DNA of 64,000 nucleotides from positions 684,820 through 748,819 of the forward strand of contig JBMNHB010000001.1 of NCBI GenBank assembly GCA_050950145.1, written 5' to 3'. The position numbers and the translations under genes are program-made. The stretch's first letter is position 1; every line of letters begins with the position of its first letter. The notes under the pieces were generated by a model, which searched no databases, had not been told where the DNA came from, and saw only the letters and a list, made by a program, of their open reading frames with translations. Below, in pieces: positions 4,246 through 37,563 of this stretch. This DNA is from Candidatus Dojkabacteria bacterium. GTDB taxonomy: Bacteria; Patescibacteriota; Dojkabacteria; SC72.

Positions 4246-7200
4246 ATGATTAAAAAAACTGCTAAAAACTCACATATAAAGAAAATTCTCTTTATCCTAA
4301 CTACCCTTTTATTAGTTATTGGTTTTACAGCCTTTTTGGTTAAGGACAAAGGTTTTAAGACTCTCGCCTACTCTTCTGATCTATTTGTTACAAGATGGCA
4401 AACTAATGTTCCTGGAGCAACTGACCCAACTAAAGTCACTTTAAGATTTTTGAAAGTAGCTACAGATACCTATGAAGTCTCTTGGAATTGTGACGACAAT
4501 TACGAACTGTTTTACACTAGCTTAGCTACACATAATTATCCAACAGCAGGTACATATGATGTTTGTGTTAGATCTACTAGACCACTTCGTTTTTATGCTC
4601 CTGATTTAGCTGATGATGAAAAAGCTAAACTCCTAGAGATTAAACAATGGGGTACTATCCCATGGTCAAGTTTTATGTCTGCTTTCAAGGACATGAAAAA
4701 CATGCAACTAACTGCTACTGATACTCCTGATTTATCAAATGTTACAGATATGTCCTATGCTTTTAATGGCGCTACTGCTTTTACTGGCCATAGTTCAATG
4801 AATAACTGGAACACTAGCAATATTAAGAATATGTCGTACATGTTTTATGGCGCTACTTCATTTAATCAATACATTGGTAACTGGAACACAGGAAATGTCA
4901 CAAGTATGTTATACATGTTTAATGCGGCTACTAATTTCAATAATGGTGAAGCATCTGGTGCAAGTAATAACACCATGAACTGGAACACTCAAAATGTTCT
5001 AAATATGGCATATATGTTTTATGGCGCTAAAGCATTTAACCAAAAAATTGGTTCTTGGGATACTAATAATGTTACCAGTATTATTGGTATGTTCTTTAAT
5101 GCCAGCACATTTAATCAATATATTGGGAATTGGCAAACTGGGAAAGTTACCAGTATGACATACATGTTTAGTGGAGCTGTTGCATTTAATAATGGCGACG
5201 CTCCGGGTGCCAGCAGTAAGCCCTTAAATTGGGACACCTCCAAAGTTACTTTTATGAACAATATGTTTAGTAGTGCCACCTCATTCAATCAATATATTGG
5301 CAATTGGAATACAGGGAATGTTACAAGTATGACATTGATGTTTTACAATGCTAAAACATTTAATCAAGATATTGGCTCCTGGGACACTAGTAAGGTTAAG
5401 AATATGTCCAATGTATTTTATAATGCTACAGCATTTAATCAGTATATTGGTAATTGGCAAACTGGTGAAGTTACTAATATGGCAAGTATGTTTAATGGTG
5501 CAACCAATTTTAACAATGGTGATGTGCCAGGCGGAAGTAGCAAACCTCTAAACTGGAATACAGTCAATGTCACTGATATGTCGTTTATGTTTGTAGCAAA
5601 GAACTTTAATCAGCCAATTGGTCATTGGAATACAAAAAATGTAAATAATATGGCACATATGTTTAGAGGTGCTAGTCAATTCAATCAATATATTGGCAAT
5701 TGGAATACAGGGAATGTTAACAATATGGAAAAAATGTTTGAATCTGCCCCAGCCTTTAATAATGGTGCTCAGCCTGGTGACAGTAGTAAGCTTCTAAATT
5801 GGAACACTGCAAAAGTTACTAATATGTCATCTATGTTCAATGGCGCAACTACCTTTAATCAAAATATTAGCAATTTTAATATTCCTGTCCTCACTCAAGC
5901 AACTAATATGCTAAACAATTCTGGGATGAGTACACCTAAGTATGATGCTCTGTTAAACAGTTGGAGCCAGCAAACCGTTAAACCAAATGTGGCTTTGGGT
6001 GCTGTAGGTATCTACTACTGTACTGCCAAACCAGCTAGAGATATCCTAACAGGTGCCCCCAATAACTGGACTATTACAGATGGAGGACAAAATTGCCCTC
6101 CACAAAACCTCACTCTATCTAACACAGAGGTTAATGAAAATTCAACAGAGGTAGGAACTATTACAGCAACCGATGACAATCTCCCCATTATCTACACCCT
6201 TGTAGTTGGACAAGGCGATGAAGATAATTCAAAATTTGCACTTAATACTACTACTGGATATCTAACTTTCCTAGAAGCTCCAGATTATGAAAACCCTACA
6301 GACTTAGGTGACACACCTAATAACAACACCTACTCTATTAGAGTAAGAGCTACTGATAACACTGCACAATACTCTGAAACTATCTTCATCATCACAGTCA
6401 AAGACATTGATGATGTGCCACCCATCATTACCATTACTGCACCAACTAAGATGGCAAAAGGACCTATCACCGACACCACATTTACTGTAAGTGATCGTTT
6501 CTCAATCGCTTCTGTAGAAGTAGATACATCAAGTGTTGCTTCTGCTGACAGTATTGTGTGTACACCTCCTTTCCCATATGTAAATCCCGCACCTAGTCCA
6601 GAGAATCATATAACGCTAAACTGTACTATTAGGATTTTAAGCTCTGGTAAACTAGTACTGAAAGCTACCGATAACAATGGTAACAGCACTACAGCTACAG
6701 AAGAAGGATATGTCATTGACACACTAGGTCCTACATTTAGTGTAGCTAATGTTGATACAACAATAAATGGTTTACATAACCCAGTTGTCTCATTTGAAGC
6801 TCATGACCCAGTAGGTGTACAGAAATATGAAATCATCTTTATCCAAGACAACAACGGTCCTGGTATTTCTCCTAATCAAACCATAGAAACAGTCCAATAC
6901 ACTGGGGGTGTACAACAATTAACAATTAGCCTAGATCCTCATGAGGCTTCTCATGTAGTTGAAATAAAGGCATACGACAACACTGGTAATACAACATCAA
7001 GAAGAATTACATTTCCACCTGTGGTAACAATCAATGCACCAACCATAATTAGCAATCAACCAATTGACGATACCACAGTAACAATTACTTCACCTGTTAA
7101 TGGCAATCTAATTGACCATATTGTAATCTCTGGTTCTGCTTCTGCTGGGGTAACACTAGGTACATGTACAGATAAAAATAACAATACAACTGCACCATAC

Positions 7201-9396
7201 AACACCACTGTAACCTGTGAGATACATGGCATCCAAGCAACAGGTATGGTTGCCATTCAGGCTCAAGATATAACAAGTGGAGCTATTGGTAGTAACCTAC
7301 AGAAATACTTCTACGACACCTCTGCTCCAAATATCATTATCACTGCACCTACCAAAATTAAAAATGACAATATTACAGATGTCACAATTGCGGTTACTGA
7401 TAATATTGATCTCTTTTCTAATAGTGTAACAATAGACACATCTACAACAGCTGGATACAACAATCTAGTATGCAATACTGATGAAAATGACAAGTCAATA
7501 GTGAACTGTACCTTAACAATCACAAGCTCAGGTAATTTAGTCATTAAAGCTACAGACAAAGCTGGTAACTTTTCTACAGCTATAGAAAGTAATTTCATCA
7601 TTGATAGAACAGCACCAGTAGTAACAATAGATACTCCTGTAGCGGTCAATTACAACAATCAAGTCAACTACACCCTATCAGGAACATGTACAGCTGGTGA
7701 TAATGACTTGATTGTTACCATAGGTATACAACCATATGTTGCAATATGTGGTGTAGATGAAACATGGAGTTTACTCGTAGATCTCTCCTCATATACTGAT
7801 GGAGAGATTGTAGTATCTGTAAAACAAACAGATACCGTAGGAAACCAAACAACTGAAGGGGCAACATTACAAAAAGATACTATTCCTCTTGTAGTTATCA
7901 TTAACCAAACAGCAATACAGCATGACCCTACTAATACCCAACCTATTAGGTTTACTATAATCTTCTCTGAATCAATAAAGGAAGATACATTTACAAAGGA
8001 GGATATCAATGTAACTGGAAGTACTACTTACCAGAAAGGTAATATTACAAAGATAAGTGATATTGAGTATGAGTTTGAAATCACAAATCTAACAGATGGT
8101 GATACTGTAACCGTTGATATACCTGCAGGTGTATGTACAGATCTGGCTGGTAATAATAATCTCGTATCAACTTCTATAGACAACTCAGTTACATATGATG
8201 TCACCTCTCCAACAGTTACAGTAAACCAAGCTATTGATCAAGCAGACCCTACTAATATTAACTCTGCTAAATACACAATCATATTCTCAGAACCAATTAA
8301 GGAAGATACATTTACAAAAGATGATTTAGTAATATCTGGAAGTAATACTGCTACAGTATCACAATTATCAAAAGTAAATGACACAACATATACCGCAACT
8401 GTAGTTAATATGGTATCAGGAGAAACAATATCACTCACCCTACCAGCTGACAAAGTTCAAGACCTTGCTGGAAACAAAAATAGTATATCAACCAGTAATG
8501 ATAACTCTGTAACATATGACAATACTGCACCTACTGTAACTATCAATCAATCTTCAACTCAAGCAGACCCAACAAATATTAACTCTGTTAAATACACAGT
8601 TATCTTCTCAGAACCAATCAAAGAAGATTCATTTACTAATGAAGATATATTAATTTCAGGAAGTAGTACTGCTAAAGTAAAAAGTATTACAAAGATAAAT
8701 GATACAGAGTATGAAGTTGAAATTGAACAATTAACAGATGGTGATACAGTAATAGCAACAATTCCTGCTGATGTATTAACTGATTTAGCTGGAAACAAGA
8801 ATATTGCATCTACCTCTACTGATAGCAGTGTTACATATGCTGTAGAGGGAGAAGAAGAGGAAGATGATGAAACACCTCCTACCCAAGAACCAGAGACACC
8901 AACAACTCCATTAGATTCAAAACCAGCTGTAAAACCAAAGAATCCATTTGATAAATATATTAACCCTGTGATAGAACAAGAAGAGACTACTACTCCAACA
9001 AAAGAAGATTCATCAGATAGAACTAGCAAAACTACTCCACCTACTCAATCTAAGAGTTTAAGAATAAAGGTATATAATGAGTCTAGAGAACCTATCAAAG
9101 GTGTAACTGTTGAAATACATTCTGATGTTAGAACAGGAATTACTGATGAGCATGGAGAAGTATATTTTGAAAATCTAGAAACAGGTTTACATACCATGAT
9201 TATCTCGTATAATGGATATAGAGCGGAGAAAGAGATTAAGCTCATTAATAATGGAGAAGAAGAGATGGAGATCAATATAAAACTTGAAAAAGTAATAATA
9301 CCTAACTATGTTTACTGGTTAATTGCCTTGATTGTTTTGCTAACAATACTCTTGGGATACAATATATACAAAAGGAAACAGGTAGAGAAGAAATAA
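4246..9396 (+). CDS. Giant cell-surface adhesin-like protein (1716 aa). It has an N-terminal transmembrane or signal segment, about 10 DUF285-type repeats (NWNTxNVTxMxxMF / FNQxIGxW), a cadherin-like domain, multiple Ig-like domains with three tandem D-x-AGN repeats, an acidic Pro/Thr-rich linker, a carboxypeptidase-regulatory-like beta-sandwich and a C-terminal transmembrane anchor.
   Basis: Uninterrupted 5.1-kb ORF. The repeated motif FxGAxxFNQYIGNWNTGNVTSMxYMF matches the DUF285 (Mycoplasma/Listeria-type) repeat. PQNLTLSNTEVNENSTEVGTITATDDN...YSIRVRATDN is cadherin-like. TVDIPAGVCTDLAGNNN / LPADKVQDLAGNKN / IPADVLTDLAGNKN is the Big-type Ig motif. KVYNESREPIKGVTVEIHSD...GLHTMIISYNGY resembles CarboxypepD_reg. 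The C-terminus has YWLIALIVLLTILLGYNIYKRK. Confidence 0.85.
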   Translation: MIKKTAKNSHIKKILFILTTLLLVIGFTAFLVKDKGFKTLAYSSDLFVTRWQTNVPGATDPTKVTLRFLKVATDTYEVSWNCDDNYELFYTSLATHNYPTAGTYDVCVRSTRPLRFYAPDLADDEKAKLLEIKQWGTIPWSSFMSAFKDMKNMQLTATDTPDLSNVTDMSYAFNGATAFTGHSSMNNWNTSNIKNMSYMFYGATSFNQYIGNWNTGNVTSMLYMFNAATNFNNGEASGASNNTMNWNTQNVLNMAYMFYGAKAFNQKIGSWDTNNVTSIIGMFFNASTFNQYIGNWQTGKVTSMTYMFSGAVAFNNGDAPGASSKPLNWDTSKVTFMNNMFSSATSFNQYIGNWNTGNVTSMTLMFYNAKTFNQDIGSWDTSKVKNMSNVFYNATAFNQYIGNWQTGEVTNMASMFNGATNFNNGDVPGGSSKPLNWNTVNVTDMSFMFVAKNFNQPIGHWNTKNVNNMAHMFRGASQFNQYIGNWNTGNVNNMEKMFESAPAFNNGAQPGDSSKLLNWNTAKVTNMSSMFNGATTFNQNISNFNIPVLTQATNMLNNSGMSTPKYDALLNSWSQQTVKPNVALGAVGIYYCTAKPARDILTGAPNNWTITDGGQNCPPQNLTLSNTEVNENSTEVGTITATDDNLPIIYTLVVGQGDEDNSKFALNTTTGYLTFLEAPDYENPTDLGDTPNNNTYSIRVRATDNTAQYSETIFIITVKDIDDVPPIITITAPTKMAKGPITDTTFTVSDRFSIASVEVDTSSVASADSIVCTPPFPYVNPAPSPENHITLNCTIRILSSGKLVLKATDNNGNSTTATEEGYVIDTLGPTFSVANVDTTINGLHNPVVSFEAHDPVGVQKYEIIFIQDNNGPGISPNQTIETVQYTGGVQQLTISLDPHEASHVVEIKAYDNTGNTTSRRITFPPVVTINAPTIISNQPIDDTTVTITSPVNGNLIDHIVISGSASAGVTLGTCTDKNNNTTAPYNTTVTCEIHGIQATGMVAIQAQDITSGAIGSNLQKYFYDTSAPNIIITAPTKIKNDNITDVTIAVTDNIDLFSNSVTIDTSTTAGYNNLVCNTDENDKSIVNCTLTITSSGNLVIKATDKAGNFSTAIESNFIIDRTAPVVTIDTPVAVNYNNQVNYTLSGTCTAGDNDLIVTIGIQPYVAICGVDETWSLLVDLSSYTDGEIVVSVKQTDTVGNQTTEGATLQKDTIPLVVIINQTAIQHDPTNTQPIRFTIIFSESIKEDTFTKEDINVTGSTTYQKGNITKISDIEYEFEITNLTDGDTVTVDIPAGVCTDLAGNNNLVSTSIDNSVTYDVTSPTVTVNQAIDQADPTNINSAKYTIIFSEPIKEDTFTKDDLVISGSNTATVSQLSKVNDTTYTATVVNMVSGETISLTLPADKVQDLAGNKNSISTSNDNSVTYDNTAPTVTINQSSTQADPTNINSVKYTVIFSEPIKEDSFTNEDILISGSSTAKVKSITKINDTEYEVEIEQLTDGDTVIATIPADVLTDLAGNKNIASTSTDSSVTYAVEGEEEEDDETPPTQEPETPTTPLDSKPAVKPKNPFDKYINPVIEQEETTTPTKEDSSDRTSKTTPPTQSKSLRIKVYNESREPIKGVTVEIHSDVRTGITDEHGEVYFENLETGLHTMIISYNGYRAEKEIKLINNGEEEMEINIKLEKVIIPNYVYWLIALIVLLTILLGYNIYKRKQVEKK
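4700..5900. repeat. Intragenic array of about 10 degenerate DUF285 repeat units (about 35-45 aa each) within the adhesin gene
   Basis: Recurring nucleotide and peptide motif aat(t/c)ggaa(c/t)ac... / NWNTxNVxxMxxMFxxAxxFNQxIGxW seen directly in the translation. Confidence 0.6.
7890..8850. repeat. Three tandem repeats of about 315 bp (about 105 aa) encoding Ig-like (Big-type) domains inside the adhesin gene
   Basis: The block DPTN(T/I)...IIFSE(S/P)IKED(T/S)FT(K/N)(E/D)D...TDLAGN(N/K)N...SVTYD appears three times consecutively. The unit boundaries are approximate. Confidence 0.7.
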
Positions 9397-12987: not shown

Positions 12988-13107
12988 GTCCTGGCAATAA
13001 CCTATCTTCCCAAAACCAAAGGTTTAAGTATTTTCGGCGTTAGAGTGTTTTACTTCTGAGTTCGGGATGGAGTCAGGTAGTTCCACTCTACTACAATCGC
13101 CAGGCAA
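12988..13107 (-). rRNA. rrf: 5S ribosomal RNA
   Basis: The reverse complement reads GCCTGGCGATTGTAGTAGAGTGGAACTACCTGACTCCATCCCGAACTCAGAAGTAAAACACTCTAACGCCGAAAATACTT..., a canonical 5S (compare E. coli TGCCTGGCGGC...CCGAACTCAGAAGTGAAACG). Confidence 0.85.
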
Positions 13108-13542
13108 AAAGGATCTATTGTATAAATTCCTTTTGCCTGACCTCTTCTTACGAAGAGCTCAGGACTTAATTCTAAAGAGCAAGAGTGTACATTGTACACT
13201 CAAAACCGAACAGAAAGTAATAGAAAATCAAAGAAGCTTTTGGTCGATTAGTACTCCTCAGCTAAGTATATCACTATACTCACACTTAGAGCCTATCAAC
13301 GTGGTAGTCTTCCACGAACCTTCCGTGTAGTCAAGCTACACAAGTATATTTAATCTTGGGAGTGGCTTCGCACTTATATGCCTTCAGTGCTTATCCGATA
13401 ATAACTTAGCTACCCAGCTATGCTCTTGGTAGAACAGCTGGTAGACCAGAGGTTACCACACCCCGATCCTTTCGTACTAGGGGTCGAATCCCTCAAATAT
13501 ACAACGCCTATACCGGATAGAGACCGACCTGGCTTACGCCGG

Positions 13543-13573
<31 letters not shown>

Positions 13574-13606
13574 ACGAACAGTCCAACCCTTGGGATCTTA
13601 TCCAAT

Positions 13607-13638
<32 letters not shown>

Positions 13639-14207
13639 GAACCTTGCCGTCAATATGAACTATCGGGCAAGACTAGCCTGTTATCCCCGGGGTAACTTAT
13701 CTTCGTTAAGCAATGGCGCTTCCACGCACAACCAAAGGATCACTTAAACCTACTTTCGTAACTGATCGGGATGTCTCCCTCACAGTAAAGCCTCCTTATG
13801 CTTATGCACTCTTCACCCGATTTCCATCCGGGTTGAGGAGACCTTAGTGCGCTTGCGGTACTCTTTAGCAAGCAACCGCCCCAGTCAAACTTCCCACCAT
13901 GCACTGTCTAGAATCCAGATAATGGATACTGTTAGAAATAAAATACCAAAAGAGTGGTATTACACTGTTGACTCCACAATTCCTGACGAAACTGCTTCAT
14001 AGTCTCCCACATATTCTATACATCCGAGACCTTATCTCAATGCAAAGCTGAAGTAAAGCTCCACGGGGTCTTTTTGTCCTGGTATAGGTAGGCCGCATCT
14101 TCACAGCCATTTCAATTTCACCGAGCACGTTGTCGAGACAGAGGAAAAATCGTTACACCTTTCATGCAAGTCACTAATTAAGTGACAAGGTATTACGCTA
14201 CCTTAGG

Positions 14208-14523
14208 CATTTCTGTTACTTCCATCTAGTGTTCATTAAACTAGAAGACCTATTTTTAGGCGGATACACCTTCGTGTATCTCTCTACATCACTGTAGAGG
14301 TCGGACTATATCTTCACAATATTATATTGTGTCTAGCATGTAGCCTCTGAGGATTTCCAATTTCTTGGATCTTTCCTGCTGATTGTCCATAAATACAAGA
14401 TTGTTACTCTTTGGTACTTGTATCGTTTAGGATGTTCCAGCATATAGCTAGATTTTAAAACGGCCCTATATCTTTAGATAGCAAACCGAGATTAGCAAAT
14501 ATCTCAGTAGATATATATCTACC
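14208..14523 (-). mobile_element. Group I intron 2 (ORF-less, about 316 nt) inserted after U1923 of 23S rRNA. It lies 6 nt downstream of intron 1.
   Basis: It follows the mini-exon AACGGT (plus strand 14524-14529) and ends ...GAAATG immediately before CCTAAGGTAGCG. It has a second set of P (CTAGCTATATGCTGGAAC), Q (AATCAGCAGGAAAG), R (TCAGAGGCTACA) and S (AAGATATAGTCCGACC) elements. A candidate guide sequence GCCGTT pairs with AACGGT. Confidence 0.75.
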
Positions 14524-14529
14524 ACCGTT

Positions 14530-14829
14530 CACTTGTGTTACCCTCTAACAACATTTGTTAGATTCGTGTATATATTTCTACATACATCTGTATGTCGCCA
14601 TACAGGTCGGACTATATCATCTCCTTATCAGGAGTTTGGCGTATAGTCTCTGAGGATTTCCAATTTCTTGGATCTTTCCTGCTGATTATCTGCATTCTTA
14701 CATTTTAACTACTAGAGATTACAAATTTCTTACAATTTGAATATCATCTAATGAGTAGTAAGAAATACTCAGACTTTCCAGCATATAGCCAAATTTTACA
14801 ACTACAATTCCTAGCTTTCACTAGGTCTA
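14530..14829 (-). mobile_element. Group I intron 1 (ORF-less, about 300 nt) inserted after U1917 of 23S rRNA (E. coli numbering, helix 69)
   Basis: The upstream exon ends ...GGCGGCTGTAACTAT and the intron ends in G just before the mini-exon AACGGT. Conserved group I cores are present: a P-like element AATTTGGCTATATGCTGGAAAG, a Q-like element AATCAGCAGG, R (TCAGAGACTATA) and S (GATGATATAGTCCGACC). A candidate internal guide sequence GTAGTT pairs with the exon end AACTAT. Confidence 0.75.
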
Positions 14830-16188
14830 ATAGTTACAGCCGCCATTGACCAGGGCTTCGACTTTTTGCTTCGCAACCACTAGGGCACCGAAGTGCACCC
14901 AGCAGAGAGCTAACAAATCATCTTAACCTTCTGGCATTGGGCAGGTGTCAGCACTTATACATCCTCTTGCGAGTTTGCAAGCGCCTGTAGTTTTGGTAAC
15001 TAGTCGTTCTTCCCTATTCTGTGCCACTTCCATCACCACAAATTAAAAACTTATGATGGGAAGTCCCCCTTCTTGCGAACTTACGGGGTCAATTTGCCGA
15101 ATTCCTTAACAACGCATCACTCGTACGCCTTAGTGCATTTACACTTGTCCACCAGTGTCGGATTGCAGTACGGTTACAAACATTTTTTTCAACTACCGAA
15201 GTAGTTAAAGATAGAAGTTTTTCCTGGAGAATTAAATACAACAGATCGGCTTCCCGAAGGTCACCTTTGTATTACAACTCGCGTCCATCCACCGAAGTGG
15301 AAACACTCTTCCGGATTTTCCTAAAAGAGCTCTCTTGTTGCTTACACCCCAAACCGATAAGGGGCCTGCATCTTCAATCCTCACACTCCATTTCAAATGT
15401 TAGTAGTACAGGAATATTAACCTGTTAGCCATCGCCTACGCTTTTCAGCCTCAACTTAGGACCGACTAACCCATGGTTGACTGACATAGCCATGGAAACC
15501 TTAGACATTCAGCGAGCAGGGTTTTCACCTGCTTTACGTTACTCATCCCAGCATTCTCACTTCTATACGCTCCAGCAGCTCCTTACGGGCCACCTTCACA
15601 GCTAATTACCGACTGCTAAGTCGGTCATGTATAGAACGCTCCCCTACCACCCATACATATCGTAGTATGTATAAATTCGCAGCTTCGGAATTTACCTTCA
15701 GCCCCGTTAACTTTAAGTGCAAAATCTCTTGATTAGTAAGCTTTTACGCATTTTTTAAAGGATGGCTGCCTCTAAGCCAACCTCCTAACTGTCTGAGAAA
15801 TTTCACTTCCTTTCCCACTAAGGTAAAATTTGGGGTCCTTATCTGACGATCTGGGCTGTTTCCCTCTCGAGCACAGGAACTTAGATCCCTGACTCTAACT
15901 GCTGTAATGTACAATACGGTATTCGGAGTTTAACTGGAATGGGTACCCTTTCGGGCCCCAAATCCAATCAGTGCTCTACCCCCATATCTTAAATTACAAC
16001 GCTAGCCCTAAAGCTATTTCGGGGAGAACCAGCTATTACCAGGTTCGTTTGGCATGTTACCGCTAGCCACAAGTCATCTCATAATTTTGTAACATTAAAA
16101 AGTTCGGGCCTCCGTCATGATTTCTCATGATTTCACCCTGCTCATGGCTGGATCACCTGGTTTCGGGTCTCGTGCATGTGACTCAAAT

Positions 16189-16219
<31 letters not shown>

Positions 16220-16337
16220 CCCCAATAAACATGGTTAACCTTGCCACACACAACGAACTCACTGGGTCATTCTTCAATAGGCACGCCGCTACCGGATATA
16301 CCGGCTACGACTGTTTGTAAGCATATGGTTTCAGTTG

Positions 16338-16379
<42 letters not shown>

Positions 16380-17128
16380 TCTATACTAATTCACTATCGG
16401 TCACAAAAGATATTTAGCCTTGCCGAGTGGTATCGGCTGATTCCTACAAGATCTCACGTGTCTCGTAGTACTTAAGAAATTAAAAAGGAGATTCCACATT
16501 TTTATATACGAGGCTGTCACTCTCTATGGCATATCTTTCCAGATATATTCTACTAAAATGGAATTTTGTAACTCCTTGAAGTGCTTGCTACCACTTCTAT
16601 TAACTCTTACAACGCTTACACCGCACGAGTAGCAACCTACGAGTTCAAGTCTTCACGCTCCGCAACGCGGATTGCAATTTCTATCCCTCTTACACGGTAT
16701 AAGTTTAGGCTCTTCCCTTTTCGCTCGCCACTACTAGGGGAATAAACATATGTTCTCTTTTCCTGCAGGTACTGAGAGGTTTCACTTCCCTGCGTTGTCT
16801 CCTATACAGCTATGTATTCACTGCAAGGTAACTAGGCATAACCCCAGTTGGATTACTCCATTCGGAAATCTTCGGATCAAAGCTCGTTTGACAGCTACCC
16901 AAAGCTTATCGCAATCTACTACGTCCTTCATCGATCTTTTGTGCCAAGGCATTCGCCATACGCCCTTAATTTGCTTAATTGAAATTACTTTCTATTCAGT
17001 TTTAAATGTGCAACTACGGATACTGTAATTCTTACTGTAAAACATTACGACCTACCTCAACAGTAAAAATATATACAGATATCCTGATTCAGAAATTAAA
17101 GATTTCTCTTCTTTTTCTGATAACAATA

Positions 17129-17202
17129 TGGACCTGAGGAGAGTCGAACTCCTGACCTCTTCATTGCAAATGAAGCGTTCTAGCCAACTGAACTACAGGC
17201 CC
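17129..17202 (-). tRNA. tRNA-Ala (anticodon TGC) in the 16S-23S spacer
   Basis: Reverse complement GGGCCTGTAGTTCAGTTGGCTAGAACGCTTCATTTGCAATGAAGAGGTCAGGAGTTCGACTCTCCTCAGGTCCA. It forms a cloverleaf with anticodon loop TTTGCAA and a G3-U70 pair. Confidence 0.9.
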
Positions 17203-17213
17203 AGAACATATTC

Positions 17214-17290
17214 TGGTGGGCGCACCAAGAATCGAACTTGGGACCTCAGTCTTATCAGGACTGCGCTCTAGCCAGCTGAGCTATGCGCCC
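17214..17290 (-). tRNA. tRNA-Ile (anticodon GAT) in the 16S-23S spacer, with encoded CCA
   Basis: Reverse complement GGGCGCATAGCTCAGCTGGCTAGAGCGCAGTCCTGATAAGACTGAGGTCCCAAGTTCGATTCTTGGTGCGCCCACCA. Confidence 0.9.
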
Positions 17291-17373: not shown

Positions 17374-18920
<1,547 letters not shown>

Positions 18921-19306
18921 AAAATAGTACTTAACTTCATACTGTAAAACAATATGGCCAACTAGTACAAATGTTGGACTTTTAAACGTATGACTAAATG
19001 AATTGTGTGAACCCAATCACACAGAAAGTCAATATTTTAGACTTCCTGTCACTCTTCAACTTTTAAGGTGCTAACAACACATCATTGTATAACACTAAGT
19101 AATTTCTTCTCAGGGGGTTCGTTAGAGAAGTTCTCTAAGAGGATTCCTGTTTCTCCATACACATTTTTAACACATATCCCAAACTCGTGAGCAGAAGTAT
19201 AGCATATCAATTTTAAATATGCAAGCTTTTTCATATAGACCTGGTCTGCGTACTTTCCCTTATCACTACAACCCAAAGAGATTGTTTTTGAGACTTTTTA
19301 ATCTTA

Positions 19307-20829: not shown

Positions 20830-22137
20830 GATGCATTAGATAAAAACTAGTGTTACCCAACAACACCCCGTTAGATAAAAATAGTGTTACCCAAATATAC
20901 TCTGTAATTAAACTAAATACATCAGAGTATGCAAGACAATATTTTTACTAAAATGGCGGTAGTCAAAAGAAAAAAAGAATATCTAGAAACTAAAAAACGG
21001 GAAGAGAAAACTGAGATACTAGACTGGCTAGTCAAAGATACAAACAGGTCTAGGAAGTCACTCATTAGATCTCTGAACAATCCAAATATTACAGAGAGAA
21101 ACATATCTGGAAGAGGTGGAAGGAAAAAGAAATATACTCCACAATCTAAAAACATCGTAAAAATGATATGGCAAGCAAATGATTGTATCTGTGCTGAGAG
21201 ATTTCATGGTCAAATTGAAGAAACACTAAAAGATTTAAAACAAGCAAACAAACTAGAAGGATATATAGATAGCGACATTGAGTTGGTGAGGAAAATACCT
21301 CTAGGTACACTTAAACTCTTTGTTGCTAAGTTCCCTAAACCTAAAAGAGGAAGTATTAGTTCTTCGGGAAGTGTGAGAGCATTACAAAAACAAATACCTG
21401 TGAGAACTTACTTCTCTACTAACATTAAATCGGGCTTCTTTGGTGTTGACTTTGTTGATCATAATGGAGGAAATGCTACTGGTAAGTTTGCTAGAACATT
21501 GGTATTTACAGACCCTAAAACCACATGGATTGTGAGAAGTGCTTGTCTGGGAAAAGATAGCTTAGCTGTGGGGAATGCTTTTGAATTGAACAAAAAGAAA
21601 ATACCATACACAATTGAAGGATTACACTCTGACAATGAACCTGCATTACTAACCTCTCTGCTCTCTTCTAAGGCTAAAGAAAACAATATATTCATTACTA
21701 GAAGCAGAAGTTACAAAAAAGAAGATAATGGACATACAGAACAGAAGAATGGAGACAAAGTGAGAGGTTTAGTGGGATACCGAAGATATGATACATTACA
21801 ACATATTGATTTACTTAACAGGATATATGAGATTGATGACCAATTTCAAAATCATTTTGTGCCTTCTGTGAAATTGAAAGAAAAAGAATTTAATGACTTA
21901 GGTAGAGTAATTAAGAAGAAATATGATAGTCCTAAAAGTCCATATCAGAGGGTAATGGAAGAGAAGGATATTGATATACAATTCAAGATGTCACTTGCGA
22001 GTAAACATTCTAAATTAAATAGGTTAGAATTGTTAGAGGAAAGAGATAAATTGTTAAGAAAGTTAACTCGCTTAGGTAACACTATTTTTATCTAACGGGT
22101 TTGCATTCGGTAACATTTAGTTTTTATCTAACGGTAA
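20830..22137 (+). mobile_element. Insertion sequence (about 1.3 kb) with one DDE transposase gene and terminal inverted repeats. Each repeat is made of two tandem copies of a 24-bp motif CCGTTAGATAAAAA(c)TAGTGTTACC.
   Basis: Left end copies are at about 20836-20858 and 20868-20892. Right end copies, as reverse complements, are at about 22077-22101 and 22110-22135. The transposase stop codon lies inside the inner right repeat (GGTAACACTATTTTTATCTAA encodes G N T I F I stop). Confidence 0.7.
20929..22095 (+). CDS. DDE-type (rve/integrase-fold) transposase
   Basis: N-terminal HTH-like region. Catalytic region GVDFVDHNGG ... LVFTDPKTTW ... LHSDNEPALL followed by RSRSYKKEDNGHTEQKNGDKVR, which is the retroviral-integrase-like D..D..E plus the K/R-H-x-x-x-x-N/E segment. 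The insertion-sequence family is not assigned. Confidence 0.75.
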   Translation: MQDNIFTKMAVVKRKKEYLETKKREEKTEILDWLVKDTNRSRKSLIRSLNNPNITERNISGRGGRKKKYTPQSKNIVKMIWQANDCICAERFHGQIEETLKDLKQANKLEGYIDSDIELVRKIPLGTLKLFVAKFPKPKRGSISSSGSVRALQKQIPVRTYFSTNIKSGFFGVDFVDHNGGNATGKFARTLVFTDPKTTWIVRSACLGKDSLAVGNAFELNKKKIPYTIEGLHSDNEPALLTSLLSSKAKENNIFITRSRSYKKEDNGHTEQKNGDKVRGLVGYRRYDTLQHIDLLNRIYEIDDQFQNHFVPSVKLKEKEFNDLGRVIKKKYDSPKSPYQRVMEEKDIDIQFKMSLASKHSKLNRLELLEERDKLLRKLTRLGNTIFI

Positions 22138-22216
22138 GGAGATAAAACCTTTTTTAAAAAAACCTGGTATATGAATATCTGCTAATTAAAATATTTACGA
22201 AGATTTCTTTGCACCA

Positions 22217-22525
22217 TTAATTAATAAAACTTCTTATCTCGTCTATTGAAGATTGACCACTATTAGGAAACTGTAGATTCTCCAAGAAAGAAGAAATCTC
22301 TTCACTACCAAAACCAAAAGAATAAAATGTTTGAGCAATCAGTTCATACAGCTCATCAGGATTAAAACCAAATACAAAATCATTTGACAAATCCCTCATA
22401 AGACACCATTTATCCTCATTTGGAATAGGTAACTCTTCCAGTGCGTAAAAAACATCTTCTGCCTCTAATCCTAACCCTCCAGGTTCTTCTGTTGTAGAAT
22501 ATTCATCCTCACCAAAATCTTCCAT
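22217..22525 (-). CDS. Small acidic hypothetical protein (102 aa)
   Basis: ORF with a high D/E content. No motif recognised. Confidence 0.45.
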   Translation of the reverse strand: MEDFGEDEYSTTEEPGGLGLEAEDVFYALEELPIPNEDKWCLMRDLSNDFVFGFNPDELYELIAQTFYSFGFGSEEISSFLENLQFPNSGQSSIDEIRSFIN

Positions 22526-22542
22526 ACATATTATTACTCAAA

Positions 22543-24366
22543 TTAACTACTTCTCATAGAATACATCTTTTCTAATTCACTTACCCTTGTAGCATCATTA
22601 GCACTCTTATCTCTATCCCACTCTATCAACCTAGGAAACCTAAGTGAAAGACCTCCTCCAATATCCTCTTCTCCTAATCTCCTTGTAATCTCATCGGCTT
22701 CAACAGTAAAAACAACCTCTGGATAGACCCAAACATCAGGTTTCAGATTCTCAGGACAGAGAACATCCTGTGGTTGCTCTTCCTCTATCTTAGACTCAAA
22801 CTGTTCTTTAATACTCTTCAATTGCTCATCACTAAAACCTGTCCCCACCTTACAAATTGCCTCATAACCATCTGTCTTCTCGTTATACAATGCTCCTAAA
22901 ACTGCCCCTACTCCAAAATCAGATCTCCTTCCCGAACCAAAATAGTATCCAACACATACAAGATCAACAGTATCCACAAGTGTATTCATCATACTCTTCT
23001 TTAACTTAATCCAATCATAGTTCCTTACACCTGGTAAATATCCTCCTGTACTCATTTTTACAATAACTCCTTCATATCCTTTCTCTACGTTCTCATTAAA
23101 AGTCTTCATTAGAGTATCTAAATCTTCTACTTTTTTAGTCTTACATCTCTCTAAACTACCACTCATTTCAACCTTCTCAAGAATATCTATCCTCTCTTCG
23201 GTATCACTATCTATTAAATCTTTTCCATTTATATACAAAACATCAAAAACCATTGCTCTAACAGGAATATCTTTAGATCTATCACTAACCCCATACTTCC
23301 TTCTTCTCTGCATAGTTTCTTGAAATGGAAGAAATTTTCCATCTTTGAATCCCAATACCTCAGAATCAAGGATAAAGGAGGTATCTGTAATACTTCTTGC
23401 TGATTCAACAACCTCTGGAAACATCTCTGTTACATCTTCTAAATTCCTAGTAAAAAGCTTAATCTCTGTATCACTACTAGCCATATCAAAGAGGTTAACT
23501 TCTTTCTTTGATATATATTTCTTCCAAATATATTCCCTATGCTCAAAATCTTCTACCTTATATTTATGAATCTGACATCTTAGACCATCAAATTTAGGTT
23601 GCACTAATGCAGGAACACCTGTTCTGTCAAATGTTTCTTCAAATGCACCTACCCTTTCTACTAATCTAGGTAATACTGGTATCCCTGGTTGAATATCTAC
23701 TGCTTTAAGACTATCAACAGCACCAAAACTATCTTTTCCTGCAATCTGAGAGTAAATATATCCAATATCTGCAGATACACCGTATGCTCTATCTAACTCA
23801 TCTCTTACACTTTTATCACCAGCAATTATGAAGGAGAAAACATCTAGTAATGTCTTAAAACTAATACCAAACCTTAACTGTCCACATATTATCCTTACAA
23901 AATATTTAGCTTCCAAAGGAGAAAGCTGTTGTAATGTATCTAAAACAATACTGTTTTTCTTATCCATAGCACCACTTCCCTGTATATTAACTATACCCCA
24001 AAGGGTATCATATATTTCTTCAAGTTCTTTACCAAAAGAGTTAAATTTGGCTTTTTCTGAGAACAGTTTAACCGTATCTCCAATATCTCCCAAACTATCC
24101 CTTTCAGCTTTAATATCAACATCTAAACCTTTCATCTTTGAATAGTTCTCAAGTAGAGAGAGTAAGCTTTTTTCAGAATAGTTAAATTCACTATTTAGAA
24201 AGAATGGTGCAACTCTACCAAGAACCATGTATGAAAGAATCTCTCCTTCTTCCTTAGTAAGTTTTTTGTAAAAATCAGCTAGTATTTGTGTAACTTCATT
24301 CCTAGAGCTTCTTTGCTCTATCTGTTCAAATATGTTTGCTACTTCGTGGAACTTCATACTATCCAA
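22543..24366 (-). CDS. ATP-dependent DNA ligase
   Basis: Motif I KFDGLRCQIHK (KxDG adenylation lysine). The length and downstream OB-fold region fit the archaeal/eukaryotic-type ATP ligase architecture. Confidence 0.85.
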   Translation of the reverse strand: MDSMKFHEVANIFEQIEQRSSRNEVTQILADFYKKLTKEEGEILSYMVLGRVAPFFLNSEFNYSEKSLLSLLENYSKMKGLDVDIKAERDSLGDIGDTVKLFSEKAKFNSFGKELEEIYDTLWGIVNIQGSGAMDKKNSIVLDTLQQLSPLEAKYFVRIICGQLRFGISFKTLLDVFSFIIAGDKSVRDELDRAYGVSADIGYIYSQIAGKDSFGAVDSLKAVDIQPGIPVLPRLVERVGAFEETFDRTGVPALVQPKFDGLRCQIHKYKVEDFEHREYIWKKYISKKEVNLFDMASSDTEIKLFTRNLEDVTEMFPEVVESARSITDTSFILDSEVLGFKDGKFLPFQETMQRRRKYGVSDRSKDIPVRAMVFDVLYINGKDLIDSDTEERIDILEKVEMSGSLERCKTKKVEDLDTLMKTFNENVEKGYEGVIVKMSTGGYLPGVRNYDWIKLKKSMMNTLVDTVDLVCVGYYFGSGRRSDFGVGAVLGALYNEKTDGYEAICKVGTGFSDEQLKSIKEQFESKIEEEQPQDVLCPENLKPDVWVYPEVVFTVEADEITRRLGEEDIGGGLSLRFPRLIEWDRDKSANDATRVSELEKMYSMRSS

Positions 24367-33178: not shown

Positions 33179-33255
33179 TGGTGGTGGGAAGTGGAATCGA
33201 ACCACCGACCTTGGGTTTATGAATCCCATGCTCTAACCTACTGAGCTATCCCACC
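33179..33255 (-). tRNA. tRNA with anticodon CAT and a G1-C72 pair (elongator tRNA-Met, or tRNA-Ile2 if modified by lysidine)
   Basis: Reverse complement GGTGGGATAGCTCAGTAGGTTAGAGCATGGGATTCATAAACCCAAGGTCGGTGGTTCGATTCCACTTCCCACCACCA. Confidence 0.8.
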
Positions 33256-37488: not shown

Positions 37489-37563
37489 TGGTTGCGGGGG
37501 CTGGATTCGAACCAGCGACCTTTAGGTTATGAGCCTAACGAGCTTCCACTGCTCTACCCCGCG
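37489..37563 (-). tRNA. Initiator tRNA-fMet (anticodon CAT) with a C1xA72 mismatch and A73
   Basis: Reverse complement CGCGGGGTAGAGCAGTGGAAGCTCGTTAGGCTCATAACCTAAAGGTCGCTGGTTCGAATCCAGCCCCCGCAACCA. The unpaired 1:72 position is the bacterial initiator hallmark. Confidence 0.8.

Follow-up and report, generated by a model that had tools for sequence, protein, structure and literature searches.

Group I introns abound in the 23S rRNA genes of the bacterial candidate phyla radiation (CPR). In the survey by Tsurumaki et al. (2024, PMC11270868), 82% of CPR 23S genes carried insertions, with up to 16 in a single gene; 45% of the insertions were group I introns, 222 without an open reading frame (ORF) were counted, and genes for LAGLIDADG_1 endonucleases clustered at positions 1917, 1931 and 1952 (sites 23IS6-8). 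One rRNA operon is usual in these genomes (PMC11270868). Here we analyse a stretch of 64,000 nucleotides from Candidatus Dojkabacteria (contig JBMNHB010000001.1 of assembly GCA_050950145.1, positions 684,820 to 748,819; the window), whose 23S gene is interrupted by what are almost certainly two genuine group I introns, A at site L1917 and B at site L1923, separated by an exon of six nucleotides. They resemble the surveyed introns in host group, in gene region, in belonging to a 1917 family that usually carries a single-domain LAGLIDADG_1 gene, and in sharing a gene with another intron, as many of those do. They differ in that position 1923 is absent from the 14 recurrent sites of the survey, which describes neither a 1917 plus 1923 tandem with a 6-nt exon nor an exchange of P6a and endonuclease gene between neighbours. 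Taken whole, the locus is best explained by two independently self-splicing introns with a joint endonuclease history, an explanation that we hold with considerable confidence.

A comparable arrangement is described in archaea. Introns of type IB4 occupy large-subunit (LSU) positions 1923 and 1931 in archaea, and in KP308720.1 IB4.7 (21440-21763) is followed 8 nt further on by IB4.15 (21772-22514) (Nawrocki, Jones & Eddy 2018, PMC6125680). That pair shares with ours the intron family, the use of site 1923 and a very short exon, but its hosts are archaea and it combines 1923 and 1931 around 8 nt, not 1917 and 1923 around 6 nt. In Synechococcus sp. C9 the 23S gene has introns at L1917 and L1931, and also at L2593 (Haugen et al. 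2007, PMC1995217). These too are neighbouring introns of the helix 69-71 region that lack P2 and have a complex P5, and the LAGLIDADG ORF of the L1917 member starts in P6 and runs through P7, P3 and P8, just as in the Dojkabacteria relatives described below; however, the exon between them measures 14 nt, every intron has its own endonuclease gene and site 1923 is unused.

Tandem self-splicing group I introns around very short exons are also known from Coxiella burnetii, where Cbu.L1917 and Cbu.L1951 flank a 34-nt exon, and from the phage Twort orf142 introns, which flank one of 23 nt; exon skipping occurs in both (PMC10136302). Site L1917 is used in Coxiella as here, but the exon in each of those tandems is 4-6 times as long as ours, the introns of Coxiella are of subgroups IB2 and IA3, and skipping was shown there by experiment, whereas splicing here is predicted. 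Position 1923 is the site of the I-CeuI intron in the chloroplast LSU gene of Chlamydomonas eugametos (PMC3315327), likewise a group I intron, which encodes a LAGLIDADG endonuclease; it differs in its organellar host, the endonuclease of the Dojkabacteria introns is only distantly related to it, and the window copy is endonuclease-free. Under the notation L1923 the literature gave no group I intron record, and the site was found under other notations. Mitochondrial mini-exons shorter than about four codons between group I or II introns 'occur regularly' (MFannot, PMC10352661); those lie in protein-coding genes, unlike the exon described here, which belongs to a bacterial rRNA helix and forms, whole, the P1 substrate of the downstream intron.

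Two group I introns in helix 69 of the 23S rRNA gene

The 23S gene and both introns lie on the minus strand, a small correction to an earlier sequence-only reading of this DNA. Exon boundaries were set by MAFFT alignment against E. coli rrlH together with reading of the sequence.

13228-16980, minus strand: 23S rRNA gene, 3753 nt, host of both introns (Rfam RF02541, 2303.6 bits, full-length model match)
14830-16980, minus strand: 23S 5' exon, ending in ...GUAACUAU, its last U being E. coli 1917
14530-14829, minus strand: intron A, ORF-less group I intron of 300 nt, site L1917 (RF00028, 72.2 bits)
14524-14529, minus strand: mini-exon AACGGU, 6 nt, E. coli 1918-1923, in the 3' strand of helix 69
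14208-14523, minus strand: intron B, ORF-less group I intron of 316 nt, site L1923 (RF00028, 78.8 bits)
13228-14207, minus strand: 23S 3' exon, starting with CCUAAGGUAGCG, its C being E. coli 1924

The 23S covariance model opened an insertion of about 619 nt directly after GUAACUAU, and global alignment with E. coli rrlH gave 300 nt inserted after position 1917 (14829-14530) and 316 nt after position 1923 (14523-14208). On the minus strand the locus reads GGCGGCTGTAACTAT / TAGACC...CACAAGTG / AACGGT / GGTAGAT...CAGAAATG / CCTAAGGTAGCG. The group I intron model RF00028, with a gathering threshold of 50 bits, matched at 14588-14833 (E = 2.3e-16) and at 14282-14510 (E = 2.4e-18), in both cases over its full length (model positions 1-253). 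Thus the two introns of about 300 and 316 nt that the sequence-only reading had proposed at L1917 and L1923, with AACGGT between them, were recovered by covariance model and alignment alike. Its finer claims also held: removal of both introns regains the universal helix-69 sequence, a U precedes each 5' splice site and a G ends each intron, guide sequences GTAGTT and GCCGTT lie at nt 25-30 of A and nt 60-65 of B, and R and S elements occur in each (A, 14642-14653 and 14605-14618; B, 14339-14350 and 14299-14312). The direct-repeat pattern of about 300 nt that it had noted corresponds to the two cores, the repeats being spaced 303, 306 and 341 nt. Neither intron holds an intact LAGLIDADG ORF in the ORF list for 14208-14829, where the longest overlapping frame on either strand is at most 38 aa, in agreement with the claim that both are ORF-less.

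The gene's length of about 3.75 kb was likewise correctly read, and the 622-nt insertion is real; it does not account for all the extra length, about 235 nt of which lie in small expansions elsewhere. By alignment to rrlH these include 81 nt after E. coli 272 (16623-16703), 48 nt after 303 (16544-16591), 25 nt after 1207 (15602-15626) and 30 nt after 1854 (14893-14922), all on the minus strand. None of these four matched an Rfam intron model, and some lie near sites with reported CPR intervening sequences.

Two other constructions of the insert were rejected. It is not a twintron: the six bases between the introns are exactly the exon E. coli 1918-1923, each intron is complete alone, B is found without A, and family members occupy site 1917 alone. 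Nor does it fit an intervening sequence processed by RNase III, as it lies in helix 69 and not in helices 9, 25 or 45, and matches the group I model instead of forming a simple hairpin.

Structure and type of the introns

Both introns lack P2 and have an extended P5. Helices are given below in nucleotides of the intron, counted from its 5' end.

Intron A, 5' part: hairpin in the P1 loop 5-20, internal guide sequence (IGS) 25-30, P3 37-42/190-195, P4 47-52/145-150, P5 56-60/138-142
Intron A, middle: P6 151-153/174-176, P6a 158-171, P7 182-186/216-220, P8 197-208
Intron A, 3' part: P9 225-242, P9.1 245-262, P9.2 269-287, terminal G nt 300 (window 14530)
14800-14805, minus strand: IGS of intron A, GUAGUU, pairing with exon AACUAU, whose last U forms the U·G wobble of the splice site
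Intron B, 5' part: structured P1 loop of 59 nt, IGS 60-65, P3 72-77/187-192, P4 82-87/142-147, P6a 155-168
Intron B, 3' part: P7 179-183/216-220, P8 193-209, P9 225-242, terminal G nt 316 (window 14208)
14459-14464, minus strand: IGS of intron B, GCCGUU, pairing with all six bases of the mini-exon AACGGU, whose last U forms the U·G wobble

In A the P1 loop holds a small hairpin (CCUAG-UGAAAG-CUAGG), followed by P3 (UUUGGC/GCCAAA), P4 (UGCUGG/UCAGCA), P6 (GGA/UCC) and P6a (UCCAA-GAAA-UUGGA). P7, G(A)GACUA/UAGUCC, keeps the guanosine-binding G-C pair and the bulged A; P8 is UCCU-GAUA-AGGA, the loops of P9 and P9.1 are GCGA and GAAA, and P9.2 and a conserved GUAACA motif follow. B is built on the same plan with a different P3 (UCUAGC/GCUAGA), P8 (CACAAUAU/AUAUUGUG) and P9 (CUCUACA/UGUAGAG), so that the two introns differ from each other by compensatory changes in P3, P8 and P9. 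P7 is GAGACUA/UAGUCC in A, GAGGCUA/UAGUCC in B, and shows a compensatory ACUG/CAGU at locus L090, one of the related loci described below. RNAalifold, applied to A, B and 18 ORF-less relatives (n = 20), recovered P1, P3, P4, P5, P6, P6a, P8 and P9, with compensatory changes in 33 of 46 pairs.

P1 co-varies with the insertion site (family alignment columns 14-22/75-83). Across about 120 related introns the guide is GTAGTT at L1917, GCCGTT at L1923 and GCCTTAG at L1931; GTAGTT is present in nearly all of 45 L1917 family introns, and GCCGUU recurs in the L1923 intron of L090. Each guide prefers its own site, with P1 duplex energies of -2.8 kcal/mol for A on its cognate exon vs -0.3 kcal/mol on the other site, and of -6.2 vs +0.1 kcal/mol for B. 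For P10, A gains almost nothing by pairing with the 3' exon of its own site (+0.8 kcal/mol), and B (CCUA/UAGG) reaches -2.9 kcal/mol.

The window's A differs from the otherwise identical copies at loci L127, L136 and L130 by two substitutions, at 14625 (nt 205) and 14616 (nt 214). Both preserve structure: the first turns a U·G pair of P8 into U-A, and the second changes J8/7 from GAGAUAGUCC to the family consensus GAUAUAGUCC, a change also present in L126. This suggests that the ribozyme of A is still under selection. The point bears on the idea that the insert is not spliced at all, but is a dead relic kept as an expansion segment or cut by RNase III-type processing into a fragmented 23S rRNA. 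CPR 23S genes do hold insertions other than introns, as well as intervening sequences that RNase III probably processes (PMC11270868). Against this, the group I model scores each element as a complete intron, guides, guanosine-binding pair and terminal G are intact, and the helices are maintained by compensatory changes among relatives. In the loop-proximal strand of helix 69 (bridge B2a) an insert of 622 nt, or a break, would be hard to accommodate; we consider an unspliced insert very improbable.

The absence of P2, an IGS followed by (G/A)UAAAA and P3, the extended P5 and the placement of any ORF in P6 are features of type IB4. This architecture is common to about 120 introns of our genome-scan set, and the assignment was made by homology to published members and not from a subgroup-specific model. 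One such member, IB4.12 (AQRL01000028.1, 30565-31289), is the 725-nt L1931 intron of locus L079, which our core-motif scan recovered, position and length agreeing. Haugen et al. (PMC1995217) called the same introns IC1-like but P2-less, so the subgroup label is unsettled.

Intron B also retains part of a coding frame.

14333-14443, minus strand: ORF remnant of 36 aa (MLEHPKRYKYQ...) in intron B, sharing its start and its frame with the LAGLIDADG ORF of 186-187 aa in long forms of B from relatives

The proteins encoded in B of relatives begin MLEHPKQHKY... or MQEHPKRHKYQ.... In the long forms of B (L128-L140) the endonuclease ORF starts at an AUG inside the conserved P4 strand (UAUAUGCUGGAA) and crosses P4, P5, P4' and P6 before the LAGLIDADG domain, so that about 28 codons double as ribozyme core.

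Related introns in other genomes

A scan of genomes, with a single representative of each species, for the core motif TCAGAGRCTAYR-N(12-40)-GATATAGTCCGACC gave at least 120 loci, mostly in CPR bacteria, in DPANN and other archaea, and in some metagenome-assembled genomes (MAGs) of Gammaproteobacteria. Insertion sites were called by spliced dynamic-programming alignment of E. coli 1890-1985 to each locus, in place of a simple exon-anchor regular expression that had given 11 loci only; calls at E. coli 1970-1981 and loci scoring below about 60 were ignored as noise. A scan of metagenomes for the junction of mini-exon and B added 16 loci.

L1917 and L1931, 14-nt mini-exon: at least 17 loci by spliced alignment
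L1917, L1931 and L1951, three group I introns, exons of 14 and 20 nt: L018 (JBAYJO010000005.1, Patescibacteria MAG)
L1917 and L1951, 34-nt mini-exon: L038, L106 and L118, among the matches listed
L1923 alone: L069 (Ignavibacteria), L100 (Zixibacteria), L024 and L107 (Micrarchaeota), among the matches listed
L1923 and L1951, 28-nt mini-exon: L090 (Actinomycetes MAG), among the matches listed
L1917 and L1923, 6-nt mini-exon: only three Dojkabacteria MAGs (L010, L056, L111), among the matches listed
Metagenomes, window-like, A of 300 nt and B of 316 nt: L127, L136, L130
Metagenomes, window-type A still with its ORF (759 nt): L126
Metagenomes, B alone, 717-786 nt, with a LAGLIDADG ORF of 186-187 aa from an AUG in P4: L128, L129, L132, L134, L135, L138, L139, L140
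Metagenomes, both introns long: L131, L137
Metagenomes, complete 314-nt A with a 161-nt remnant of B: L133

The loci with L1917 and L1931 include several MAGs labelled Gammaproteobacteria or Pseudomonadales. Three Dojkabacteria MAGs thus have the tandem with the same mini-exon, as do metagenome contigs L126, L127, L130, L131, L133, L136 and L137. In the three MAGs the insertion measures 1093 nt: the mini-exon is the same, B is identical to that of the window at 316 of 316 positions, as it is in two metagenome contigs, and A is 771 nt long. Its P6a holds a 165-aa LAGLIDADG_1 ORF (PF00961, E = 1.9e-19) that reads on through P7, P3 and P8.

Since rRNA regions in metagenomes are prone to misassembly, the tandem could in principle be an artefact such as a collapsed or duplicated repeat. 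At least seven assemblies, made independently in different projects, nevertheless show the same arrangement with identical junctions, and a pile-up of duplicated reads would not yield two copies that are only 65% identical; we give an artefact practically no weight.

Two of the metagenome loci merit separate mention. L133 (LDZU01003249.1) has an ORF-less 314-nt L1917 intron, AACGGT, and then 161 nt before CCTAAGG; this remnant keeps the 5' end of B and a P8-P7'-P9 tail with the terminal G, and has lost the guide and the 5' core from P3 to P7. Possible readings are an allele that no longer functions, an assembly error, and trans- or chimeric splicing. L138 differs from L131 and L137 at 7 positions in 600 nt of 5' exon and at 2 in the 783-nt B, and by a whole 754-nt L1917 intron; intron A has therefore been gained or lost precisely beside a resident B.

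Proposed mobility of the pair and exchange of the endonuclease gene

The introns are more alike among these hosts than the hosts themselves. Between the window and the Dojkabacteria MAGs the 16S genes are 95.4-95.7% identical (L010 and L111) and the 23S 5' exons 93.5-95.1%, yet A is 97-98% and B 100% identical. Similarly, L010 shares 96.5-96.7% of its exon with L056 and L111 and 99.6-99.8% of the 1093-nt insert, and the exon of L130 is about 91% identical to that of the window, with an A that is identical in its 5' part and has two differences in its 3' part. On these contrasts the intron pair is younger than its hosts. The 5' exon is about 94% identical and the 3' exon 99-100%, but this difference does not allow a co-conversion tract to be claimed, the 3' side being the most conserved part of the 23S gene.

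The endonucleases indicate movement between the two introns. Those encoded in A (L010, L126) are 75-77% identical to those encoded in B (L131, L138, L140) and only 27-35% identical to the endonucleases of other L1917 introns; the A of L131 itself contains a gene in decay, with 40% identity to enzymes that truly belong to L1917. Between the long forms of A and B, nucleotide identity is 0.8-0.95 in the cassette and 0.4-0.7 in the ribozyme flanks, and the closing stems of the cassette are alike (UUGUAAU...AUUACAA in A, CUUGUAA...UUACAAG in B). On these comparisons, the endonuclease gene is one that moved between the two introns.

In the window neither intron has the gene, and the place it would occupy in A carries the following.

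14648-14687, minus strand: 40-nt block of A (P4'-P6-P6a-P6'-J6/7), 100% identical to B, proposed conversion tract
14345-14384, minus strand: matching 40-nt block of B, proposed donor (direct repeat D1, spacing 303 nt)
14659-14674, minus strand: variable 16-nt P6a hairpin GAUCCAAGAAAUUGGA of A, identical in B

Over the 223 core columns that could be aligned, the window's A and B share 65% identity, no closer to each other than to unrelated family members, and among 49 ORF-less family introns an identical P6a otherwise occurs only between orthologues in sister taxa. The P6a module, like the endonuclease gene, has thus moved between the two introns. At exactly the P6a position of A, four relatives (L010, L056, L111, L126) have a 475-nt ORF cassette. 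The ORF is found in both allele groups of A, those with a short and those with a long P1 hairpin, and the cassettes of L126 and L010 differ at 16 of 475 nt, a divergence similar to that of the ribozyme (6 of 155 nt); because of this distribution and this parity we take the short A as derived. All ORF-less copies of A share an identical 5' part, and the endonuclease gene was probably lost from A in a single event. We therefore think it probable that the gene passed from B into A and that conversion from B later erased it in the window's lineage.

The direction could also be the reverse, an ORF-less A with a B-like hairpin being ancestral and a B-type donor supplying A with the cassette at a later time. 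Invasion of introns by endonuclease genes on their own is established and is discussed in PMC1995217, and ORF-less and ORF-bearing copies of A are interleaved on the host tree (L126 vs L127 and L136; L010 vs L130), which leaves host parsimony indecisive. Even so, this reversal still requires conversion between A and B for introns 65% identical to have an identical P6a; the cassette at the same position in both allele groups, with its 16/475 vs 6/155 divergence, fits one old acquisition, and the identical 5' part of the ORF-less copies fits one recent loss. We regard the reversed direction as unlikely.

The 40-nt identity has a further possible reading, in which B is a local copy of A that reverse-spliced into a similar AAC[GG]U six bases downstream; the two introns are of one family and their target hexamers are alike at 4 of 6 bases. 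Outside the block, though, the identity is 65% and B ranks only about 30th among the relatives of A; B occurs without A in several lineages and with an endonuclease gene of its own; and L1923 introns with the same guide are present in an Actinomycetes MAG (L090), with L1923 members of the family reported in archaea (PMC6125680). This origin is already contradicted, and we rejected it.

Returning to movement from B to A followed by erasure, we propose that the pair would act as one mobile unit, with a single LAGLIDADG gene in the P6a of one intron or the other, as seen in relatives. Because only 6 bp separate A and B, double-strand-break repair that copies one intron would copy the other, and one gene in either intron would serve both; the gene could therefore sit in A or in B while the insert acts as a unit. 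In close relatives the gene in A would derive from B. In the lineage of the window, the gene in A would have been replaced by a copy of the short P6a hairpin of B, through gene conversion between conserved core flanks; the likely substrates are AAUCAGCAGGAAAGAU and AAAUCCUCAGAG, one on each side. Once the pair was fixed in the population the gene would have become dispensable and been lost here, leaving two endonuclease-free introns that are retained since the rRNA would depend on their splicing. On balance we lean slightly towards the full picture, a composite mobile element of two ribozymes with one endonuclease gene and P6a stem that hops, or is erased, by conversion across the core flanks.

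Several points weigh against this history. Metagenome rRNA regions can be chimeric, which could inflate the contrast between introns and exons and weakens the case of L130 in particular. The metagenome scan was anchored on the 5' end of B and the counts of genome loci are lower bounds, so the distribution of states is biased and their frequencies are not estimates; A-only and intron-free Dojkabacteria fall outside the states covered. The short hairpin of B differs from the stem that closes the long form. The conversion mechanism, its direction and the endonuclease target are putative, and the endonuclease is distant from I-CeuI (E = 2.9e-13). An I-CeuI-like nature for the relatives' endonuclease, considered because the known 26-bp target of I-CeuI spans both sites, is not supported, the match to proteins of the I-OnuI family being far stronger (1e-37).

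Predicted splicing of the tandem

Both introns very probably splice and restore helix 69. We infer this from the intact cores and from the essential place of helix 69 in what is probably the sole 23S gene. Each ribozyme would fold locally and pick its own 5' splice site with its own guide (GUAGUU on AACUAU for A, GCCGUU on AACGGU for B), giving the predicted junction GGCUGUAACUAU-AACGGU-CCUAAGGUAGCGUAAUACC; the exon-skipped alternative would read AACUAU-CCUAAGG. P1 of B could form before or after the removal of A, because it uses exactly the six mini-exon bases, and those 6 bp appear to make a P1 that is sufficient and independent of A. Splicing would be sequential, since the second step of A and the first step of B each require these six bases to be docked in an active site; A would probably go first, as it is transcribed first, and the product would be an intact helix 69. 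Distinct guides and the divergence of P3, P5, P8 and P9 would limit mis-splicing.

A special adaptation of the guide of B to the presence of A was considered and is weakened by L131, which has both introns and keeps the longer GCCGUUGUA, able to lengthen P1 of B across position 1917 after A is removed.

A chimeric P3 formed by the 5' strand of A and the 3' strand of B reaches -3.8 kcal/mol vs -6.1 for the cognate helix, and the proposed conversion would have made the two cores more alike. Because such a P3 is feasible and P10 of A is negligible, exon skipping of the kind seen in the Twort and Coxiella tandems (PMC10136302) may compete here. Splicing, its order and its accuracy are all predictions of this analysis.

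In the extreme, the introns would not splice independently: they would work as a chimeric ribozyme, or one would be inactive, and the main product would skip the mini-exon or need a protein or trans-acting helper. P4, P6, P6a and P7 were called identical in A and B, which with the chimeric P3 would favour such a product; skipping is documented for tandem introns around exons of 23 and 34 nt (PMC10136302), and L133 sets a complete A beside a core-less 161-nt remnant of B. Skipping would nevertheless remove E. coli 1918-1923 from helix 69 of the probably only 23S gene, both introns have complete cores with compensatory changes and guides of their own, cognate P3 is stronger than the chimera and the reverse chimera is not viable (-0.3 kcal/mol), and B, which stands alone in other lineages, must self-splice there. 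Dependent splicing is in our judgement improbable, and independent splicing of each intron is retained.

Implications for intron tandems

The intron type is well known, and the pairing of 1917 with 1923 around a 6-nt exon is a modest extension of it. The sequence-only reading had called the tandem unusual; this pairing and this exon are modestly new, but rarity was overstated because the host is a CPR bacterium, a group in which 23S group I introns abound. The general picture of abundant CPR rRNA introns is unchanged. The finding widens the recorded bacterial use of L1923, and its six nucleotides are the shortest exon between rRNA introns that we found, vs 8 nt in the archaeon and 14 nt in many CPR bacteria and Synechococcus. 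Absence of the endonuclease gene, too, is probably a derived state of the window's lineage, as close relatives still carry it.

Together the related alleles form an unusually complete natural series of the life cycle of a homing endonuclease: B alone with the gene, both introns long with the gene of A in decay, the gene transferred to A from B, and neither intron with a gene. The series points to gene conversion between adjacent paralogous introns as a means of both moving and deleting the gene. If that is true, it offers a concrete route by which endonuclease genes are gained, transferred and lost between neighbouring introns, and an exon of 6 nt, one P1 helix long, would suffice for two introns to be spliced accurately out of an essential rRNA helix. 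As a small natural system, the locus lends itself to asking how tandem ribozymes escape the skipping of an exon that is no longer than one P1, which bears on engineered tandem introns (PMC10136302). In practical terms, tandem introns break rRNA gene callers and 23S-based CPR phylogenies.

Host operon and other features of the window

The operon has the order 16S, tRNA-Ile, tRNA-Ala, 23S, 5S. Dojkabacteria are candidate division WS6, a CPR lineage, and the genes nearby are those of a bacterium, encoding ribosomal protein S1, endonuclease III, an ATP-dependent DNA ligase, an ABC-F protein and a giant protein with DUF285 and Big domains.

17374-18921, minus strand: 16S rRNA
17214-17290, minus strand: tRNA-Ile(GAU)
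17128-17203, minus strand: tRNA-Ala(UGC)
12989-13104, minus strand: 5S rRNA
4246-9396, plus strand: protein of 1716 aa with DUF285, Big and CarboxypepD_reg domains (2031 aa in L001 and L002)
22543-24366, minus strand: ATP-dependent DNA ligase of 607 aa
39142-39218, minus strand: tRNA-Ile with anticodon UAU (ARAGORN)
33179-33255 and 37489-37563: two tRNAs with anticodon CAU

Most bacteria read AUA with a lysidine-modified CAU tRNA instead of a tRNA-Ile(UAU); in the window, the two CAU tRNAs lie near the UAU one.

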